A stretch of 64,000 bases of DNA, from assembly GCA_965219685.1 (NCBI GenBank), contig CBDCOH010000002.1, positions 3,232,001 through 3,296,000 of the forward strand. Direction: 5' to 3'. This document shows positions 6,959-49,787 of this stretch, piece after piece. The DNA is from Candidatus Spongiisociaceae bacterium (GTDB lineage Bacteria; Actinomycetota; Acidimicrobiia; Spongiisociales; Spongiisociaceae). Under the pieces are notes generated by a model. It did not search any database. It worked only from the letters and a program-made list of their open reading frames with translations, and was not told where the DNA came from. The translations under genes were made by a program, and so were the position numbers. Positions within the stretch are counted from its first letter, which is position 1, and the number at the start of each line of letters is the position of its first letter.

Positions 6959-8624
6959 CCTGAATCCACCGATGGGCGGCCGTGTCGGTCGGTGGGTCGG
7001 TGGTCGGGGGTTAGTGATAGGGGTGATGTTCGGGGTTTAGGTTGTTGGTAGGGGCATTTTAGTGGTTTGTGGGGTAAGTGGCGGGTGTAGGAGGGACGGT
7101 TAGGAGCGTTCCGGGCGTGTGTGGCTGGGGTTTGGGTGGTTGGTTCCGTTTGCGGGGGCCTGTTGGGTGGGTTCAGCAGCGCTGGGGCAGCGTCCGGAGG
7201 TTAGCGAGGGTGGTCTGGTAGGTGTGCGCCCAGGGCCATCGGGCGGGTAGTCGCAGTATGGGGCGTCCGCTGTGGTTGACCACCCGTGCGGGAATCCCGA
7301 AGATGCGGGTGCGGATGGTGCGTCCACGGATCAGCCGCCCGGCCGGCTGTGTTCGTCCCAAGATGGCTATCCAGCGGTAGAGGTTATGCGCTAGAGCGGC
7401 GCAGAGAAGCCAGGCTTGGTTGGCGGCGAACCGTCCCGATGGTAGGTGAGCGAGACCCCCGGAGTCTTTGAGGTCGCGGATGGCGAGTTCGCAGACCGCA
7501 TGGTGTCGGTGGTGGCGGTCCGCTTGTGGGGCAGGCGCATGCGAGTTGGTCACGAACGCGTGGTAACGCCAGTCGGGCCAGAACTCTTGCTGGGCGCCGG
7601 TGAGGCGGGTGCGGCGCACCACGAGGCGTACTCGGCGTTTCTGCTTACGTTTGCGGGGGTTGGTCATCTCAAGTGTGGTTTCCCCAACTTGTGCCCGGCC
7701 GCCTTCGGGATAGTCGATATCTGCCCAGTCGTCTTCGTCGATAGCCGCTATAGCGGCTAGGACATGGCGGAGTTGTGGGCAGGTGATCGACCAGCCCACC
7801 CCGAGGTGGTCCAAGGTTGCCAACATGGCATAGGACCAGAAGCCCGAATCGGCCCGAACCTCGATCCGTCCCCGAGCCCCGGCCCGTCGCGCGCACCGGA
7901 TCGTCTCCTGCGCGAAATGGGCCACACCCCGCCGCGATGCTCCGGCCCTTAGCCGGGCACCCACCGCCTCTCCTGTATCGGCCCGGAACGCCAACAGAGA
8001 GTGATAACCCAACTCTTTGGTGTACCCATAGGAGGCGCCCTCCTTGCCCCTGCCAGACACCCCACAGATCGTCGAGTCCAAATCCAAGGTCAGCGGTCTC
8101 TTCCCCGGGCCGGCACCCGCTGCCCACGCACGACCCAGCGCCACGCCCAAAACCTTGTTCAACTGGCGGGTGTGGCCCCAGGTAAACGACCGCAGGAAAG
8201 TGCCCACCGTCGAAGGTGCCATCACCTCATGGGACAACACCCGATGCGTCGACCCCGCCCGCAGCCGATCCACATGATCGATGTGAGAGCCCCCCACCAG
8301 CATCGCGGACACCAACGTCAAGGTCTTACGACCCGGCCGCGCGCCACCCACCCGACCATCCAAACGGACCACGTCATCCACCAACTCTTCCAACCCCAGA
8401 CGGCTCACCAACGTCGACGCCGCCAACAGACCCCCATCGGCCACCAACCCCTCATCGTCGAAAACCACCTCATACCGGTCAACATTGTGCGATACTCCAC
8501 CCACAGGAAGTGCCTCCCGATTCTGGACCTAAACCACTTTCGCTAACGGTTATTGTCCCAGATCAGAGGCACTTTCCACGTCTATACCACCCCCCAACCC
8601 AAACACCCACCCGGTGGATCCAGG
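6959..8624 (-). mobile_element. Complete IS1380-family insertion sequence
   Basis: TIRs CCTGAATCCACCG / CGGTGGATCCAGG (1 mismatch); 5-bp target duplication CTTAG at 6954-6958 and 8625-8629. Confidence 0.92.
7173..8504 (-). CDS. IS1380 family DDE transposase
   Basis: LDLDST, YGY..GYH, VRADSGF, CELAIRDLK, PSGRFAAN.AWL, LRLP..WPW motifs. Confidence 0.92.
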   Translation of the reverse strand: MGGVSHNVDRYEVVFDDEGLVADGGLLAASTLVSRLGLEELVDDVVRLDGRVGGARPGRKTLTLVSAMLVGGSHIDHVDRLRAGSTHRVLSHEVMAPSTVGTFLRSFTWGHTRQLNKVLGVALGRAWAAGAGPGKRPLTLDLDSTICGVSGRGKEGASYGYTKELGYHSLLAFRADTGEAVGARLRAGASRRGVAHFAQETIRCARRAGARGRIEVRADSGFWSYAMLATLDHLGVGWSITCPQLRHVLAAIAAIDEDDWADIDYPEGGRAQVGETTLEMTNPRKRKQKRRVRLVVRRTRLTGAQQEFWPDWRYHAFVTNSHAPAPQADRHHRHHAVCELAIRDLKDSGGLAHLPSGRFAANQAWLLCAALAHNLYRWIAILGRTQPAGRLIRGRTIRTRIFGIPARVVNHSGRPILRLPARWPWAHTYQTTLANLRTLPQRC

Positions 8625-8746
8625 CTTAGTGTCCCGTGTCTTTGGTCCGCTGTGTTAAAGGAGCGGTCGTGGTCCCACGTTCGGCATGCCCCACCGCTCA
8701 CGGCAACCGCGGGGACCGAGCCCTTCGCAACGAGGGGGGTTGTCAG

Positions 8747-8948
8747 TGTCACAGTCCCGTTGCATACTCGTAAGTAGCTGCAAACACCACCGGTCCGTCT
8801 GTGGTACCGATCGGACCGGGGCGGGGATCATGTTGTCGGAGCCGACCCTCGGCGGGGAATGGGGGGAGGCGTTCGTAAGCTTCGGAGGTGGCGGTCGGGG
8901 GTGGGCCCACCGGAGGGGTCCGGTCGGCGGTTTTTCGCGTTCTCGGTC
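8747..8948 (+). ncRNA. Dispersed structured intergenic element, copy 1 (candidate ncRNA with upstream promoter)
   Basis: Aligns by eye with 27081-27280 and 49106-49308: TGTCAC-N10-CATACT, CGGTCCG..GGTACCGA.CGGACC, GGAGGYGGCGG..GGGGGTGGG, TTTTCGCG. Confidence 0.55.
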
Positions 8949-9017
8949 TGCCGGGGTCGCCTGGCGCGGGTAGTCGGCGCGTTCCGGGTCCCTGTAACGA
9001 ATCCAGGGATCAGGACA

Positions 9018-9794
9018 CTAGGCGGTGGCGCCGGTGATGTGGGCGACCACTTCCTGGCGGGTCGTGTCGGCCTTCGGCAGATCGGCCACCAGCCGGCCCT
9101 GGCGGAGGATGAGAAGGCGGGTACAGATCGACCAGACATGTTCCATGTTGTGGGAGATGACGATCATCCCCATGTCGGTATCCGCGGACGAGACCATCGC
9201 CCCGATCATCTCGAGCACGGCGGCGGCCTCCTTGACGCCGAGGGCCGCGGTCGGCTCGTCCAGCAGCAGGAGCCGACCCCCCCAGAAGCCAGCCCGGGAA
9301 ATGGCCACCACCTGGCGCTGACCGCCGGACATGGTCTCGATGTCGGCGTCCAGATTCGGGAACCTCGCAGGAAGTGCCTCGACCGCGGCCCGGGCCCGCT
9401 TCCGCATCACCCTGCGGTTCAGGATCCCCAGCCTCCCGCGCCACCCGTCCCTGACCACTTCGCGGCCCAGGTAGAAATTGGCCGGGATGTCGAAGATGTC
9501 GACCAGGGCGAGCTGCTGGTACACGGTCTCGATGCCCTCGTCCCGGGCCTCCGCGGGAGTGGAGAACACTTTGCGGTCACCGTGCAGGTATACCTCGCCT
9601 GCGGTGGGGATGACCGCACCGGCCAGGCACTTCACGAGCGTGGACTTGCCCGCTCCGTTGTCGCCGAGGAGACCCACGATCTCGTCGCGGTCCAGGGAGA
9701 AGCTCACATCGTCCAGAGCGCGAATGGTCCCGTAGTGCTTGGACAGCCCCCTGATCTCCAGCAGTGGCGCGCCGGAAACGGTTGCGTACGTCAT
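9018..9794 (-). CDS. Sugar ABC transporter ATP-binding protein
   Basis: GDNGAGKST, MSGGQRQ, LLLDEPTAALG, ISH. Confidence 0.95.
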   Translation of the reverse strand: MTYATVSGAPLLEIRGLSKHYGTIRALDDVSFSLDRDEIVGLLGDNGAGKSTLVKCLAGAVIPTAGEVYLHGDRKVFSTPAEARDEGIETVYQQLALVDIFDIPANFYLGREVVRDGWRGRLGILNRRVMRKRARAAVEALPARFPNLDADIETMSGGQRQVVAISRAGFWGGRLLLLDEPTAALGVKEAAAVLEMIGAMVSSADTDMGMIVISHNMEHVWSICTRLLILRQGRLVADLPKADTTRQEVVAHITGATA

Positions 9795-25087: not shown

Positions 25088-26959
25088 GTGCGACCGGATC
25101 AGCTTCACGCGCTTGCCACCGCCTCGGACCCCCGCGTGAGCCCCGACGGGAGAACCGTCGCCTTTGTGGTGACAACACCGGATCTAGAACAAGATCGCTA
25201 CGACTGCAGGATCTGGCTCGCAGACCCCACGGTTCGTCCTCTTACCCGGGGGCCTGGTGACACGAACCCGCGCTGGTCTCCCGATGGAAAGCAACTCGCG
25301 TACCTCCGTTCGATGGGCGGCAACCCGGCCCAGGTGACCGTCATGCCGGCAAACGGTGGTAACGCGGTCACGGTATCGGACTTCAGGTACGGAGCCGAGG
25401 CGGTCGAGTGGTCGCCGGACGGCACCCGGCTGGCTGCGGTCGGGATCACACCGATCGCGCCGCTGGAGGACATCGACGAAGAGGAGATCCAACGCCGCCC
25501 GCGACGCTTCAACAGGCATCCGTACCGGTTCGACGGGATGGGCTGGATACATGATCGTCGGCGCCACATCTGGCTCCTCGATCCCGCAGGCATCCAGGAG
25601 CCTCGCTGCCTGACACCGGGAGACTTCGACGAGTCCTCGCCCATGTGGTCGCCCGACGGTTCCACCATCGCCCTCGTCACCGACCGGGAGGCCCAACCCG
25701 GCCTGGTACCCGGAAACGACGTCTTCGAAGCCGACACGGAGACCGGCGAACTGACCCGAGCCGCGCCGCGCGGATTCTGGCAGCACGCTTCCTACCGCCC
25801 CGACGGCGTCCTGCACCTCGTGGGCAACGAGGAGGCCGACTTCACCCTCTGCTCGTACCTCTACCGCCGAGAGGGCGACGGTCGCCTGACCGATCTCACC
25901 GGCCACACGGAACGAAGCTCGATCGGGCTCGGAGTCGGCCCCTACCGGATCGAATGGGACGGGGAAACCGCCCTGGTCGGCTACGAGGACTCGGGGACCA
26001 TCGGGGTGGTCTCGGTCACACCGGGAGGTGACGTCTCCCGCGTGGTTGGTGGCGAGCAGGTGGTCACCGGTTTCGCTCCGACCCCGGCCGGGTTGGCCTA
26101 CACGGCTTCCCGATGGGATCGCCCCGGTGAACTCTTTCTCGGCGACCGGCAGCTCACCGGACTATCCGGCGGCGAAGTCTCGTGGGTAAGACCAACCCAT
26201 TTCAGAGCAGCCGCCACCGGCGGTGAGATCGACACATGGGTATACCTGCCGGACGGCAACGAACCGGTCCCCTTGCTGCTCTGCATACATGGAGGCCCGC
26301 CGACCCAGTACGGATTCGACCTATTCGATGAGTTCCAGGTTTATGCATCAGCCGGCTACGGCGTCGTGGCTTGCAACCCCCGTGGATCCTCAGGCCGAGG
26401 CGAGGAATGGATCCGGGCGGTGAAGGGCGACGGGTGGGGGGTTGTCGATCTCGAGGACATCCGCGCCGCGGTCGCCGCCGCCCTCGAACGGTTCCCCCGC
26501 CTCGACCGGGAGCGTATGGGGGTGATGGGGTCCTCCTACGGGGGCATGATGACCGCTTGGATCATCGGTCACGAAGACCGCTGGCGCTCGGCCGTGGTCG
26601 AGAGCGCCATAACCGAATGGACCAGTTTCGTCAGCACCTCCGACCTCGGCGGGCTCTACGCCAGGCACTACCTGCAGGTCGACTATCCGGACGGCTGGGA
26701 GACCTGGTGGCGCCATTCGCCGGTACGAGTCGCCGACAGGGTCAGCACGCCGACCCTCGTCCTCCACTCGGACGAGGACTGGCGTGTCCCGATCGAGCAG
26801 GGCGAGCAGTTCTTCATGGCGCTGCTCCGCAACGGAACGCCGACCGAGATGGTGCGGTTCTCCGGAGAGAGCCACGGGTTGAGCCGGATCGGAACGCCGA
26901 AGCATCGCAGGGACCGTTTCGAAGCCATCCTCGACTGGCACTCCCGGTACCTGATGTAA
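25088..26959 (+). CDS. S9 family peptidase (acylaminoacyl/dipeptidyl peptidase-like)
   Basis: WSPDG propeller repeats, IHGGP, NPRGS, GSSYGG, DWRVP, ESH. Confidence 0.92.
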   Translation: MRPDQLHALATASDPRVSPDGRTVAFVVTTPDLEQDRYDCRIWLADPTVRPLTRGPGDTNPRWSPDGKQLAYLRSMGGNPAQVTVMPANGGNAVTVSDFRYGAEAVEWSPDGTRLAAVGITPIAPLEDIDEEEIQRRPRRFNRHPYRFDGMGWIHDRRRHIWLLDPAGIQEPRCLTPGDFDESSPMWSPDGSTIALVTDREAQPGLVPGNDVFEADTETGELTRAAPRGFWQHASYRPDGVLHLVGNEEADFTLCSYLYRREGDGRLTDLTGHTERSSIGLGVGPYRIEWDGETALVGYEDSGTIGVVSVTPGGDVSRVVGGEQVVTGFAPTPAGLAYTASRWDRPGELFLGDRQLTGLSGGEVSWVRPTHFRAAATGGEIDTWVYLPDGNEPVPLLLCIHGGPPTQYGFDLFDEFQVYASAGYGVVACNPRGSSGRGEEWIRAVKGDGWGVVDLEDIRAAVAAALERFPRLDRERMGVMGSSYGGMMTAWIIGHEDRWRSAVVESAITEWTSFVSTSDLGGLYARHYLQVDYPDGWETWWRHSPVRVADRVSTPTLVLHSDEDWRVPIEQGEQFFMALLRNGTPTEMVRFSGESHGLSRIGTPKHRRDRFEAILDWHSRYLM

Positions 26960-27080
26960 CTAGGGACCCTCTGCCCGGAGCCCGGACGTTCCAGTCGCGC
27001 CGCGACGTCCGGCCCTTGGAAGGTGCTGATCCATGTTGCGGTTGTGTTCACGGGGCCGCCTTCTCCACAACGGTTGGATA

Positions 27081-27280
27081 TGTCACAGACCCCTCGCATA
27101 CTGGAAGGTGGCTGCAAGACACCAACGGTCCGTGTTGGGTACCGACCGGACCGGGGCTGGGATCATGCTGAACGTACAACCCCGAAAGGGGAAGGCGGGA
27201 CGCGTCTCGGCGCCGAGGAGGCGGCGGCAGGGGGTGGGTCCCGCGGAGGTGACCCGCCCGGCGATTTTCGCGTTCTTGAT
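27081..27280 (+). ncRNA. Dispersed structured intergenic element, copy 2
   Basis: Same motif order as copies 1 and 3; hairpins CGGTCCG/CGGACCG, CCCC-GAAA-GGGG, GGGTGGGTC/GACCCGCCC. Confidence 0.6.
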
Positions 27281-27383
27281 CCGGCCAGCCGGAGCGGTCG
27301 GGTGGTTACGCCAATCTTCAACGAAACCCCGAACCAGGACCCTACGGGGAACACCTACATGATCGGAACCGAACAGGAGGCTT

Positions 27384-29714
27384 TCAGGCGAGCAGCGATC
27401 GGACGTACTGCGGGGTGATTGGAACCCTTCTGACAGGGGTGGCGATGCCTTCCAGTGCAATGTCCACCGCATTCGCCACCGCGGCCGGAGGAGCTACGGC
27501 ACCCCCCTCGCCGACACCTTTCAAGCCGAGCGGGTTGAGCGGTGAGGGGGTCTCCAAGTGGTCCACCACCAGCGACGGGACATCCCGAGCGGTGGGGATG
27601 ACGTACGCGGCGAGAGAGGCGTTGAGAGGCTGCCCTTGGTCGTCGAACACGATCTCTTCGAGCAGGGCCTCACCGATCCCCTGCGCTACACCACCGTGGA
27701 TCTGGGCATCGACGACCATCGGGTTGATCACATTCCCGCAGTCGTGGACCACGACATACTTGAGTACGGAAGCCTCACCCGTTTCGACATCCACCGCGAC
27801 GGTTGCGGCGTGCGCCCCGTATGACCATGTGACCGTGCTGGGCTGGAAATAGGCGGTGTCCTCCAGTTCCTCACCCCGGCCCCCTGCGATCATGGCCAAC
27901 TCCGCCAGCTTCAGTTCTGTCCGATCCGAGCCGGCTTGCCGGACCCCGTCCCCGGTCAGCTCGAGAGACTCGACCGGAATCCCCAGGTCCCGGGACGCCA
28001 GATCCAGGCAGCGTCGCTTCAACGCCTCCGAGGCGATAGCGACGGCGTTACCCGCCACCACAGCCACCCGGCTGGCGACCGTCCCCCAACCACGCTCGAT
28101 CTTGCCCGTGTCTCCGCCGGTTACCGAGATCAGATCGATCGGCACGCCGAGATGGTCGGCGCACACCTGGGCCAGCGTGGTTTCGTGTGCTTGGCCCTGG
28201 GAGGAAGCTCCCGTGCAAGCCTCGATCGCACCGGTGGGGGAGAGGCGAACAACGGCGCCCTCGAAGGGCCCGATCCCGGTTCCCTCCGTGTAGAAGGCGT
28301 AACCCGTGCCCACCCTGAGACCCCGGTTCTCCGCATCGACGAGAGCCCGATCGCCCGCTCCCATCGAAACGAGTGCAGCGGCCCGCTCAAGCGCCTTGCG
28401 GTAGTCCCCGCTGTCGAGAACCAGGGGCCGGCCGTCGCGGTAGAGCAGGCCGGTTGCCGTCGGCAGGCTCTCGGACTCGATGATGTTCCGCCTGCGAAGC
28501 TCCAACGGATCGATAGACAGTTGGCGTGCCGCCATGTCAATCACTCTCTCGACCGCGAACACCGCCTCAGGCCTGCCGGCTCCGCGGTAGGGCGCGTTGG
28601 GGACCTTGTTGGTGACGACCGCCGTGCCGACCGCCCGCAGGTGCCGGATGTCGTAAACGCCCATGAGATGGCTGAGTGTGTTGTACGGGAGCACGACACC
28701 GAGAGGGTTGTACGCCCCGCAATCGACGAGGAACTTGTCCCTGAGACCGAGGATCCGTCCCTCGGATGTGAGCGCCAGTTCGATCTCATGTACCTGATCC
28801 CTGGCTTGGATGGCGCTCAGAAAGTGCTCGGTCCTGTCCTCGATCCACCTGATGGAGGTCCGTAGTTCCACTGCCAGAAGGGACACGATCAGGTCTTCCG
28901 GGTACAGGACCCCCTTGATACCGAAGCCGCCTCCGACATCCGGAACGACTACCCGGACCCGATCAGCACCGAGGCCGGTAACCCTGGCCACCGCCTTCCT
29001 GAGAGGATGGGCGTTCTGGGTGGAGGACCAGAGGGTCAGGCCCGACTCGGAATCGTACCGGGCGAGCGCACCTCTGGTCTCCATGGGCACTCCGGCTTGC
29101 CGGGCTATGGTGAGCCTGGATCCCACAACCAGGTCGGCGGCGTCGAATGCGTGGTCGGGTTCCCCCAGTTCCACCCTGAATCGCGCAGCGATGTTGTCGG
29201 CCCATTCGTCGTGGACCAGCGGGGAGTCCGCCCGGAGGGCAGAGTCAGGATCCAGGACCGGCGGAAGGTCCTCGTATCCAACGTCTACCTGCTCCGCGCC
29301 GTCCACGGCATCGGTCCGGTTCTCGGCCACCACCACCGCCACCGGCTGTCCCACATACCTTGCCCGTCGCTGGGCCAGCAAAGGAGGACTCGAACTACGC
29401 ATCGACGGACGGAGGGCTTCGATGAGCGCCTCCGGGGGAGCGTCCCAGAGAAACGGAGGAAGCGGATCGGTCGGGAAGTCACGCCACGTGTACACCCCGA
29501 CCACTCCGGGAACGTGTTCGGCTCCTGCCGGGTCGATTCCGCTCACGGAAGCATGGGCGAGCGGGCTTCGCACGAATCGGACATGGAGGGAGTCGCTCGA
29601 TCCGAGGTCCTCTATGAAACGGCCCTCGCCTCGCAAGAACCTCCCATCCTCTAACCTGAGGACCGACCGGCCAACCCACTGCGGTCCTTGGTCTGGTTCC
29701 CTGTCCGCGTTCAT
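27384..29714 (-). CDS. Xanthine dehydrogenase family Mo-binding large subunit (form II CoxL-like), stand-alone
   Basis: VGGGFG.K, PYRGAGRPE, QGQ.HET, QIHGG.AQG, KGVGEGG. Confidence 0.92.
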   Translation of the reverse strand: MNADREPDQGPQWVGRSVLRLEDGRFLRGEGRFIEDLGSSDSLHVRFVRSPLAHASVSGIDPAGAEHVPGVVGVYTWRDFPTDPLPPFLWDAPPEALIEALRPSMRSSSPPLLAQRRARYVGQPVAVVVAENRTDAVDGAEQVDVGYEDLPPVLDPDSALRADSPLVHDEWADNIAARFRVELGEPDHAFDAADLVVGSRLTIARQAGVPMETRGALARYDSESGLTLWSSTQNAHPLRKAVARVTGLGADRVRVVVPDVGGGFGIKGVLYPEDLIVSLLAVELRTSIRWIEDRTEHFLSAIQARDQVHEIELALTSEGRILGLRDKFLVDCGAYNPLGVVLPYNTLSHLMGVYDIRHLRAVGTAVVTNKVPNAPYRGAGRPEAVFAVERVIDMAARQLSIDPLELRRRNIIESESLPTATGLLYRDGRPLVLDSGDYRKALERAAALVSMGAGDRALVDAENRGLRVGTGYAFYTEGTGIGPFEGAVVRLSPTGAIEACTGASSQGQAHETTLAQVCADHLGVPIDLISVTGGDTGKIERGWGTVASRVAVVAGNAVAIASEALKRRCLDLASRDLGIPVESLELTGDGVRQAGSDRTELKLAELAMIAGGRGEELEDTAYFQPSTVTWSYGAHAATVAVDVETGEASVLKYVVVHDCGNVINPMVVDAQIHGGVAQGIGEALLEEIVFDDQGQPLNASLAAYVIPTARDVPSLVVDHLETPSPLNPLGLKGVGEGGAVAPPAAVANAVDIALEGIATPVRRVPITPQYVRSLLA

Positions 29715-48976: not shown

Positions 48977-49105
48977 AAGCCGAACGGTGATCGTGGGCAC
49001 CTACTCCGGCACCCACCACACGTCCGGATCCGGGCCCGGGAGGGTGCTAGTTCTTCAGTTCAGGTGTGTTCGGCAGACGTGTTCGGTCATGCGAGGGGTC
49101 GGTTC

Positions 49106-49308
49106 TGTCACACCCCTGTTGCATATTGGTAGGTAACCGCCAAGCACCGACGGTCCGTTTTCTCGGTACCGACCGGACCCGATCGGGTTCATGTAGTCCA
49201 CTAGGCCCTCTGAAAGGGTAAAGCGGGACGCGTTTCGACGCCGAGGAGGCGGCGGTTGGGGGTGGGGCCCGCGGGGGAGACCGCCTTCGCGGTTTTCGCG
49301 GTCTTGAT
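49106..49308 (+). ncRNA. Dispersed structured intergenic element, copy 3
   Basis: TGTCAC-N10-CATATT, GGTCCG..TCGGTACCGA..CGGACC, GGGGGTGG/CCGCCTTC stem, TTTTCGCG.TCTTGAT. Confidence 0.58.
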
Positions 49309-49418
49309 TGCCGGGGATCGGTGGGTGCTGGGGGGCGGCATCTTCAGCGAACTGCCGACGTAGGACGCCTCGGACTGTGACCGATGAGAAGAGGTCGCTG
49401 CTTCATCAGATCGAGATT

Positions 49419-49468
49419 ATAGTTTCGTTATCAGTTCTTCACAGATAGTATTATGTCTACATAGTTTC
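49419..49468. promoter_or_regulatory. AT-rich promoter region with ATAGTTTC direct repeats (possible antitoxin operator)
   Basis: ATAGTTTC at 49419 and 49461, directly upstream of the HTH antitoxin. Confidence 0.3.
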
Positions 49469-49475
49469 CATAAAG

Positions 49476-49787
49476 GTGTTCAGTCCGGTGACGATGGAGG
49501 CTGCGCGGCTGCTGGGCAGTCGGGTGGCGTTGGCGCGGCGGGAGCGGCGTTGGACGCTCGCCGAGCTCGCCGAGAGGGTGGGGGTGTCGGTTGTCACGAT
49601 CCGCAAGGTGGAACGGGGTGACCCGACCGTCGCCTTGGGCACGGCCCTCGAAGCGGCCACGCTCGTCGGGGTGACGCTGTTCCACGAAGACCCGGTTAGG
49701 CGCTCCCTGGAGGTGGAAGCCGTCCAAGCCAGGCTCGCGATGTTGCCGGCCTCGGTGCGCCGCGCCGCCGTCGATGACGACTTCTGA
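49476..49787 (+). CDS. XRE-family HTH protein, HipB-like antitoxin
   Basis: RRERRWTLAELAERVGVS..TIRKVERG; overlaps hipA start. Confidence 0.85.
   Translation: MFSPVTMEAARLLGSRVALARRERRWTLAELAERVGVSVVTIRKVERGDPTVALGTALEAATLVGVTLFHEDPVRRSLEVEAVQARLAMLPASVRRAAVDDDF

Follow-up and report, generated by a model that had tools for sequence, protein, structure and literature searches.

The window analysed here, 64,000 nucleotides of contig CBDCOH010000002.1 from a Candidatus Spongiisociaceae bacterium, carries three intergenic copies of a repeated element, all on the + strand, with cores at positions 8740-8948, 27074-27279 and 49099-49307. An earlier note, made from the sequence alone, had drawn attention to these three segments and to an ordered set of blocks that they share, and both are present in the window: TGTCACA, CATAYT, a CGGTCCG...GGTACC...CGGACC hairpin, ATCATG, a CCC..GGG hairpin, GGAGGYGGCGG, a G-rich tract and TTTTCGCG.TCT. 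When the three copies were aligned, the mean column identity was 76%, with long invariant runs, and in shuffles of the window 0 matches to the combined motif pattern are expected. In the genus of the window, the core sits within a 320-390-bp unit devoid of open reading frames (ORFs), which we call the long form; all three window copies are long forms, those of copies 2 and 3 with decayed ends. We propose, with moderate confidence, that the element is a family of small-RNA genes, each equipped with a promoter and carried as cargo by transposons.

The genome to which the window belongs (4.42 Mb, 65% G+C) contains many further copies, as the earlier note had expected from the presence of three in one window. 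A BLAST search with copy 2 led to 23 places, and an iterated nhmmer search converged at 50 hits, 48 of which measure at least 150 nt and are full length (about 209 model positions). The overall identity between copies is only 70-80%. By BLAST, the element occurs in 17 of the 24 other genomes of the same family (f1), that is, in 7/7 genomes of genus g1, 3/3 of g4 and 7/8 of g7, usually with at least a dozen matches per positive genome, with no match in genera g2, g3, g5 and g6, and in none of the 16 genomes taken from elsewhere in the order (eleven families). Our covariance model R1 has no match at an E-value of 1e-5 or better in a sample of 150 further genomes from across the class. When we scanned one genome per prokaryotic species for the motifs, at least 108 stretches were found, and all 80 matches listed fall in sponge-type or Acidimicrobiia records, whose titles read Acidimicrobiia, Candidatus Spongiisocius/Spongiisociaceae, or 'bacterium' for metagenome-assembled genomes (MAGs) with sponge-type isolate names; the same motif pattern had 0 hits in viral contigs. 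Among the genomes searched, the element thus characterizes a single family of Acidimicrobiia associated with sponges and corals. The earlier note had not recognized it as a named RNA family, and indeed 0 of 4227 Rfam models reach their gathering threshold in the 64-kb window, while the best match of a permissive scan of positions 26900-27500 is psaA at noise level (12.8 bits, E 1.6). Literature searches, judged by title and abstract, yielded no description of the element. Being outside Rfam and without literature that we could find, it looks like an undescribed family of small-RNA genes with predicted transcripts.

Anchored alignments of the 48 copies delimit a core of about 235 bp, composed of a promoter followed by a segment of about 175 nt. 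Conservation starts abruptly at GGGGGTTGaCc, where the -35 box lies, and stops shortly after GTTTTCGCG; the sequence 3′ of this last block separates two subfamilies, group 1 with TTCTCGG and group 2 with ACCTGGG. The promoter is laid out as GGGGGTTGaCc-N-TGTCACA-N9-CATACT, the 17 bp between TTGnnn and the downstream CATACT giving it the canonical sigma-70 arrangement. The block TGTCAC-N10-CATAYT of the earlier note is therefore real, but it represents the spacer box and the -10 element of a full promoter. Near-invariant across genera are TGTCACA, the -10 box, AAnCACC, GGGATCA, ACGCG, the G-rich tract (GGTGGYGG-N1-2-GGGGG-N-GGGCCC) and TTTTCGCG, and within the body also CGGTCCG/CGGACCG. A consensus scan called the promoter of copy 1 with 9/12 matches (shuffled mean 0.1), while that of copy 2, whose -35 box is TTGGAT, stayed under the scan threshold with 8/12 matches and was not called. 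We also scored 119 distinct copies pooled from this and other genomes, 109 of which were scorable, and found a -10 box with A2, T6 and at least 3/6 matches in 94. Since a promoter is conserved on the + strand, a transcribed RNA is the most natural reading of the element; the promoter would fire, the product would be a discrete non-coding RNA (ncRNA), and selection would have kept intact this RNA rather than the DNA alone.

Two copies of this genome (G000), at C2:3675416 (L005) and C2:3908541 (L010), have an insertion of 55-90 nt, rich in ACGG/ACAACGG repeats, between the -35 box and TGTCAC; in one case a duplicated GGGTTGTCCGT flanks it, displacing the -35 element. A small ORF starting at the ATG in GGGATCATG of copy 1 was rejected, as this start codon varies among the copies and indels do not come in multiples of three, in agreement with the earlier statement that no reading frame is kept. 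The reading of TGTCACA as half of a CRP-type site was also rejected, its spacing being in our view unsuitable.

Transcribed from the sigma-70-type promoter, the + strand would fold into a three-way junction. In the model that we consider supported, P1 would close the junction by pairing the 5′ tail with GGTG-GCGG of the G-rich tract, P2 would branch off with a self-complementary apical loop, and P4, a C-rich/G-rich hairpin of variable sequence, would lie within P3. The part 3′ of the junction is predicted to begin with unpaired G-rich sequence and to continue with the hairpin P6, which is variable, and with TTTTCGCG (block GTTTTCGCG). Consensus folding based on MAFFT alignments fails in the variable hairpins: RNAalifold recovered only P2 fragments and local pairs, because MAFFT misaligns these hairpins. 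Averaged single-sequence pair probabilities were equally poor at recovering the structure, and when columns were simply scanned for complementarity, the conserved G-rich and T-rich blocks overwhelmed the signal. We therefore relied on three other approaches, namely an unfitted MAFFT alignment of 91 sequences (A3), an alignment-free test in which the duplex energy of a helix's own two strands was compared with that of permuted partners (90 representatives, 2000 permutations), and a covariance model built from ten well-aligned copies and a hand-drawn structure. The latter was used to realign 95 copies (A5), an alignment that is fitted to the structure and hence leans towards it.

On A3, P2 reaches 88% pairing and all 8 of its 8 pairs vary on both sides; P1a reaches 87% (in one pair, GC 38, GU 28 and AU 16), and P1b is invariant. 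In the alignment-free test, the native partners gave -15.08 kcal/mol against -12.04 for permuted ones in P2, -11.64 against -9.51 in P3 and -10.67 against -10.12 in P1, and for none of these three helices was any of the 2000 permutations as low; for P6, 90/2000 were (weak support), and for a control pair 1655/2000. On A5, 82.7% of the cells pair, against 72.9% when shuffled (0/500 as high) and 32-44% with the partners slid, and both sides change in 33 of the 42 pairs, the individual helices reaching 88% (P1a), 88% (P2), 89% (inner P3), 87% (P4) and 73% (P6). Covariation is thus supported for P1 and P2 on the unfitted alignment, for P1-P3 free of alignment, and for P1-P4 and P6 on the fitted one, and the claim that stems are kept while their sequence drifts stands for these helices. 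Two more helices were tried and dropped. P5 would join CCCAGG, 5′ of the G-rich tract, to CCTGGG, 3′ of TTTTCGCG; it looked good by eye in group 2 but lacks support overall, 168/2000 permutations being as low. P7, a GCG/CGC helix flanking the T run, reaches 35.6% pairing on A3.

The earlier note had also read the mismatches as G-U on the + strand, which would be A-C on the - strand. This asymmetry is clear for P1, where we counted 107 G-U against 4 A-C on A3 and where the + strand is energetically better in 89/97 sequences. It is weak for P2 (35:21 on A3), and by duplex energy it is absent or reversed for P2 and P3; over P2-P7 on A5, the count is 223:116. Copy 2 folds at -89.5 kcal/mol on the + strand (z -1.80), with a z of -0.54 for the - strand. 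The strand evidence is mixed overall.

In 103/115 copies, the apical loop of P2 contains a palindrome of 6 nt or more (6-8 nt), against 31.5% of shuffled loops. Several types occur, chiefly GACGTC (46), GGTACC (24), CGATCG (12) and GGCGCC (5), and when the palindrome columns are taken as pairs on A3, 94.5% are 'paired' (AU 43 / GC 32 and CG 62 / UA 23). Because the bases at the very tip of a hairpin cannot pair with one another, the symmetry would point either to intermolecular loop-loop pairing of the RNA or, in double-stranded DNA, to a protein site with two-fold symmetry.

The long form is an IS630-family miniature inverted-repeat transposable element (MITE) that inserts at CTAG. A related genome (G001) has undergone a recent burst, with 11 near-identical long-form copies with sharp ends. 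Their terminal inverted repeat (TIR), CTAGTGTCCCGAGTC, is about 15 bp long, the right end being the exact inverse of the left, and CTAG is found on both sides of most of the 11 copies where contigs reach, a few flanks being degenerate (CCTGG, CTAAG). The 16-mer MITE end has 104 matches in G001, against 2 for a control pattern. The 395-bp unit of copy 1 recurs whole in G001, G002 and G007, and the orthologous ABC-ATPase gene end in G005 and G007 has a single CTAG and no element, at the place where the window has GGACA|CTAG. An autonomous partner exists in G002, where a 1,176-bp (1.18-kb) element encloses a DDE_3 (IS630-family) ORF between inverted CTAGTGTCCTGATTC ends that are the same as the MITE TIR; there are 14 DDE_3 matches in G002 and 0 DDE_3 genes in the genome of the window. 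Given IS630-type MITE ends, empty sites, a burst and an autonomous partner, the spread is by DNA and not by RNA. Two statements of the earlier note fall with this result: that neither TIR nor target duplication is visible, when 15-bp TIRs stand with CTAG on both sides and the empty sites have one CTAG, and that the mobile element might be RNA-based, when the conserved unit carries its own upstream promoter and the window copies lie inside IS630-type DNA MITEs.

A right arm ending CAGGACAC(TAG) is common to 15/17 group-1 copies examined, and a left arm of about 110 nt starting (C)TAGTGTCC occurs in several group-1 copies. The downstream ATCTTCA.CGAA that had been noted in copies 2 and 3 is conserved as claimed, but it is part of the MITE around the core, namely of its right arm, and not of the core itself. 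The core has no match inside the autonomous IS630 or ISL3 copies tested; absent from autonomous IS630, it is cargo and not a piece of the transposon. The core, bounded by the short inverted repeats CGCGAAAAC ... GTTTTCGCG, rides in the MITE and so gains copies by DNA transposition. A genome-wide scan for MITE ends with 2 mismatches was too noisy, the empty-site comparison at copy 2 met synteny that was too weak in five relatives, and the contigs of four public DNA runs, interrupted or chimerically joined at the repeats, revealed no empty site; among the public runs listed for this genome, none is recorded as RNA. Table 1 lists the features of the three window copies.

Table 1. Features of the three long-form copies in the 64-kb window (all on the + strand; CM, covariance model)
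Copy	Feature	Position	Strand	Remarks
1	Long-form IS630-family MITE	8630..9017	+	Flanks cttag 8625-8629 and ctag 9018-9021; TIR CTAGTGTCC; right ctag and stop codon of the ABC-ATPase gene (convergent) overlap
1	Left inverted repeat of core, GACCGAGCCCTTCGCAAC	8715..8732	+	Degenerate partner of right block; resembles ISL3 terminal repeat GAGGCTTCGCGAAAAC
1	Promoter TTGTCA-17 bp-CATACT	8740..8768	+	Invariant TGTCACA in spacer; consensus scan and conservation
1	Predicted RNA segment, ~175 nt	8775..8948	+	Start inferred from -10 box
1	P1 (predicted)	8778-8788 with 8887-8894	+	
1	P2 (predicted)	8790-8797 with 8812-8819	+	Apical palindrome GGTACC 8803-8808
1	P3 (predicted)	8836-8842 with 8879-8885	+	
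1	G-rich tract	8887-8908	+	
1	GTTTTTCGCGTTCTCGGTC	8930-8948	+	
2 (noted copy)	Long-form MITE	26964..27342	+	Degenerate ends, left TAGGGACC, right GGACCCTA; left flank ctag 26960-26963, immediately after the stop codon of the upstream gene
2	Promoter TTGGAT-17 bp-CATACT	27074..27102	+	Sequence, cross-copy alignment
2	Predicted RNA segment ending ATTTTCGCGTTCTTGA	27108..27279	+	CM match to L001, 74 bits
3	Long-form MITE, subtype expanded in G001	49051..49368	+	Left flank ctag 49047-49050; right end degenerate
3	Promoter TCGGTT-17 bp-CATATT	49099..49127	+	Weak -35 box; sequence, cross-copy alignment
3	Predicted RNA segment ending GTTTTCGCGGTCTTGA	49133..49307	+	CM match to L004, 56.4 bits

Other repeats adjoin the long forms. 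A second MITE-like repeat, bounded by CTAG and with ends GGAGGGTGCTGAGCAATCC...GATTGCTCAGCACCCTCC, lies next to several of the G001 copies (flanks of L179-L189), so that CTAG sites appear to collect tandem insertions; positions 49040-49050 of the window (GGAGGGTGCTAG) may be compared with it. At 7173-8626 of the window, an insertion sequence with a 443-amino-acid DDE_Tnp_1_4 transposase (131.6 bits) abuts the left end of the copy 1 MITE at about 8626. It has at least 15 copies in G002 at about 78% identity, and public-run contigs break at its boundary with the MITE. Between copy 3 and a + strand ORF from about 49484, which by eye only resembles an XRE-type helix-turn-helix protein, about 90 bp (49390-49480) are sharply AT-rich.

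The genes around the 48 copies, called with a crude GC3-based gene caller made for this analysis, bear out the earlier observation that the neighbours are not fixed. No gene is a constant neighbour, and the orientation relative to the neighbours varies. The gene upstream shares the strand of the element in 31/48 copies; the one downstream does so in only 15/48 and lies on the other strand in 33/48. A tabulation of downstream genes, which the earlier note had suggested, turned up no regular partner. Convergent spacers hold 21/48 copies and divergent ones 5/48, a distribution expected for an insertion that is best tolerated away from promoters. With no constant gene downstream on the same strand (15/48), a riboswitch or 5′ leader is excluded.

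The core has ends of its own. Its right block GTTTTCGCG has an inverted partner, CGCGAAAAC, about 20 nt upstream of the -35 box. This left repeat is clear in about nine group-2 copies, as GGTCGCGAAAAC...GTTTTCGCGACC (for example, GGTCGCGAAA...TTTCGCGACC), and degenerate in group 1, where it reads GACCGAG(cc)CTTCGCAAC. The 9-mer CGCGAAAAC is also found in the terminal repeats of resident ISL3 elements, and in some copies GAGGCTTCGC is shared too. The likeness of core and ISL3 within this genome amounts to 9-14 nt of terminal repeat, the ISL3 interior having no core match. One full resident ISL3 (1,353 bp, ends GGCCCTGCGCGGAAATGTGGG / GAGGCTTCGCGATTTCGTGGG) is flanked by an 8-bp duplication, CAGATGTC, whereas none is detectable around the cores. 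Lacking this duplication and any core match inside ISL3, the core can be called an 'ISL3-type MITE' by resemblance only. The block TTTTCGCG is not enriched genome-wide: base composition predicts about 90 sites and 96 are present, 49 of them in or near copies. It is duplicated about 20-45 nt apart in the own copies G000:C2:3908215-3908541 (L010) and C2:2114388-2114598 (L037), and in another lineage (L092, L099, L081, L093 and others) a second (A/T)TTTCGCG or ATTTCAC regularly follows it after about 14 nt.

A 1.48-kb IS110-family element at G000:C2:1190929-1192411 (mostly in L018; DEDD_Tnp_IS110 match, 82.8 bits) interrupts a core copy exactly before TTTTTCGCG. Sister IS110 copies (C2:3057208, 3093125, 3027698) stand directly beside the ISL3-type end GAGGCTTCGCGAAAAC. 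The non-coding left end of the IS110 element, about 230 nt long, holds CACGCGAAAACTGG, the same words as its target, including CGCGAAAAC, which we take to be what the target guide of a bridge RNA would look like. The region G000:C2:3.02-3.15 Mb is dense in IS110 and ISL3 matches, several of them fragmentary or nested, and accounts for many of the 23 IS110 and 17 ISL3 matches of the genome.

Several of our results weigh against an RNA product, and they have to be set beside an alternative that we judge possible but improbable, namely that the core is a DNA-only relic, an old ISL3-type MITE that now also lies within IS630 MITEs. The G-rich tract, TTTTCGCG, the palindrome and the hairpins would then be sites for a transposase or for host proteins, and its promoter would read outward as in many insertion sequences and MITEs, with an RNA by-product that may activate neighbours or silence them by antisense. 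In favour of this reading, the MITE nature of the long form has been demonstrated, inverted repeats delimit the core, clear in about nine group-2 copies and degenerate in group 1, and CGCGAAAAC is shared with ISL3 ends. The preference for convergent spacers and avoidance of divergent ones is MITE-like. The perfectly palindromic hairpin tip, the TIR-like ends and the tandem TTTTCGCG have the look of protein-binding DNA sites, TTTTCGCG recurring in direct orientation after about 20-22 nt in two own copies and another lineage, much like an array of sites for a protein. By duplex energy, P2 has no + strand advantage (p 0.92), and for P3 it is the - strand that comes out slightly ahead (p 0.009), so that both fit a DNA-level inverted repeat equally well. 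Furthermore, P3 is only 37-41% paired on A3 in two registers, P4 about 57-64%, P6 54.5% and P7 35.6%; P3/P4 are no better than shuffles in either register on the MAFFT alignment, and among the alignments it is only the model-fitted A5 that lends support to P4. The segment GGGCCC..TTTTCGCG is no more stable than its shuffles (mean z 0.03), and conservation of the 3′ part lies in its sequence, not in its structure. Only 55/109 copies have a -35 box with 4/6 matches or more at the fixed offset, and no terminator-like site was called on either strand within copies 1 and 2, which leaves the 3′ end of the predicted RNA undefined. Around naked cores, flanking 8-mers agree at 8/8 positions in 6/48 cognate against 41/600 non-cognate pairs, and with no 8-bp duplication detectable there we infer, and do not observe, the core's own mobility; given the age of the naked cores, decay of such a duplication is possible. 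What speaks for the RNA gene over the relic is that the copies are old, as their 70-80% identity indicates, and their left repeat is decayed, yet the promoter hexamers and internal blocks are near-invariant across three genera, which is not expected of neutral relics. The excess of G-U over A-C in P1 and its + strand advantage argue in the same direction, as do the absence of the core from the autonomous IS630 and ISL3 copies tested and the lack of an ISL3-type 8-bp duplication.

Two other explanations take up the position of the copies or their ties to mobile elements. The copies could be punctuation of the REP or ERIC kind, acting in cis as stabiliser, terminator or insulator between convergent genes and having no product of their own, an idea that their intergenic position, mostly 3′ of genes (upstream gene on the same strand in 31/48, downstream gene on the opposite strand in 33/48), and their stable hairpins bring to mind. 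We consider it unlikely, since it has no role for the conserved promoter, the two copies scanned gave no terminator-like call on either strand, and the element is long and modular compared with REPs of 20-40 nt and is not fixed in orientation to its neighbours. It seems more unlikely still, indeed very improbable, that the element is a guide or cofactor RNA acting in trans for a mobile-element enzyme, as an orphan gene resembling those of bridge RNAs or omega RNAs. A predicted multi-helix fold of about 175 nt under its own promoter would be compatible with such a role, the genome has 23 IS110 Pfam matches, and one IS110 has inserted exactly before TTTTTCGCG of a core copy. However, 47/48 copies have no adjoining IS110 gene and the sole neighbour copy is interrupted by the IS110, which has its own non-coding left end of about 230 nt with CGCGAAAAC; no Rfam family for such RNAs matches, and no variable, guide-like segment with matches elsewhere turned up, although no systematic search was made.

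Returning to the small-RNA gene family, our best guess is that the product would be a trans-acting RNA, possibly dimerising through its palindromic loop, that serves either the element or the host. More tentatively, and with some doubt, one may imagine a new class of ncRNA genes that uses transposons as its vehicle. Each gene would specify a three-way junction of about 175 nt with a G-rich tract, loops would pair into homo- or heterodimers or larger assemblies, and about 50 functional paralogues per genome across the sponge-symbiont family would act in trans, for instance on C-rich targets, a mobile-element protein or a host protein. If the promoter fires, the genomes of uncultured sponge-symbiont Acidimicrobiia would each contain about 50 genes of a hitherto undescribed RNA family, and the element would be a clear case of a structured-RNA module carried as cargo by two unrelated transposon types. 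It would offer a natural experiment on the multiplication of ncRNA genes, and a covariance model is ready for annotating these genomes. A deeply conserved structured cargo combined with a loop that is palindromic across several variants is an unusual pair of features, and the apical loop, palindromic through at least 4 sequence variants, is an oddity that can be tested. Even as DNA alone, the element explains assembly breaks and repeat content in these MAGs, and the IS110 elements here land at a transposon-end motif.

Among known systems, MITEs derived from IS630/Tc1-mariner elements are found in bacteria, Nezha being a cyanobacterial example. The long form is like them in its size, its lack of an ORF, its perfect TIRs of about 15 bp, its CTAG/TA targets, its multiple copies and its autonomous DDE_3 partner. 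It differs in that two thirds of it is a cargo module, comprising the promoter and the structured segment, and this module also stands alone, predates the MITE, shows covariation and is shared, in conserved form, by several genera. The Correia repeat-enclosed elements of Neisseria, ERIC and BOX are intergenic, TIR-bounded repeats of 100-250 bp that are present in dozens to hundreds of copies, with promoters and hairpins and possibly small transcripts. They have no sequence relation to the element described here, in which a complete internal promoter reads through a predicted three-way junction, a G-rich tract and a palindromic loop, and which is confined to one family of Acidimicrobiia. Rfam also contains lineage-specific, multicopy structured RNA motifs such as Chloroflexi-1 and Acido-1; these resemble our element in being intergenic, multicopy, limited to one lineage and endowed with covarying stems, although none of them matches here. 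Finally, the bridge RNA or seekRNA of IS110 elements shares with the predicted product a structured RNA of about 150-200 nt that is tied to mobile DNA, but our core does not lie beside a recombinase, and its TTTTCGCG block is the target of IS110 and not a guide.

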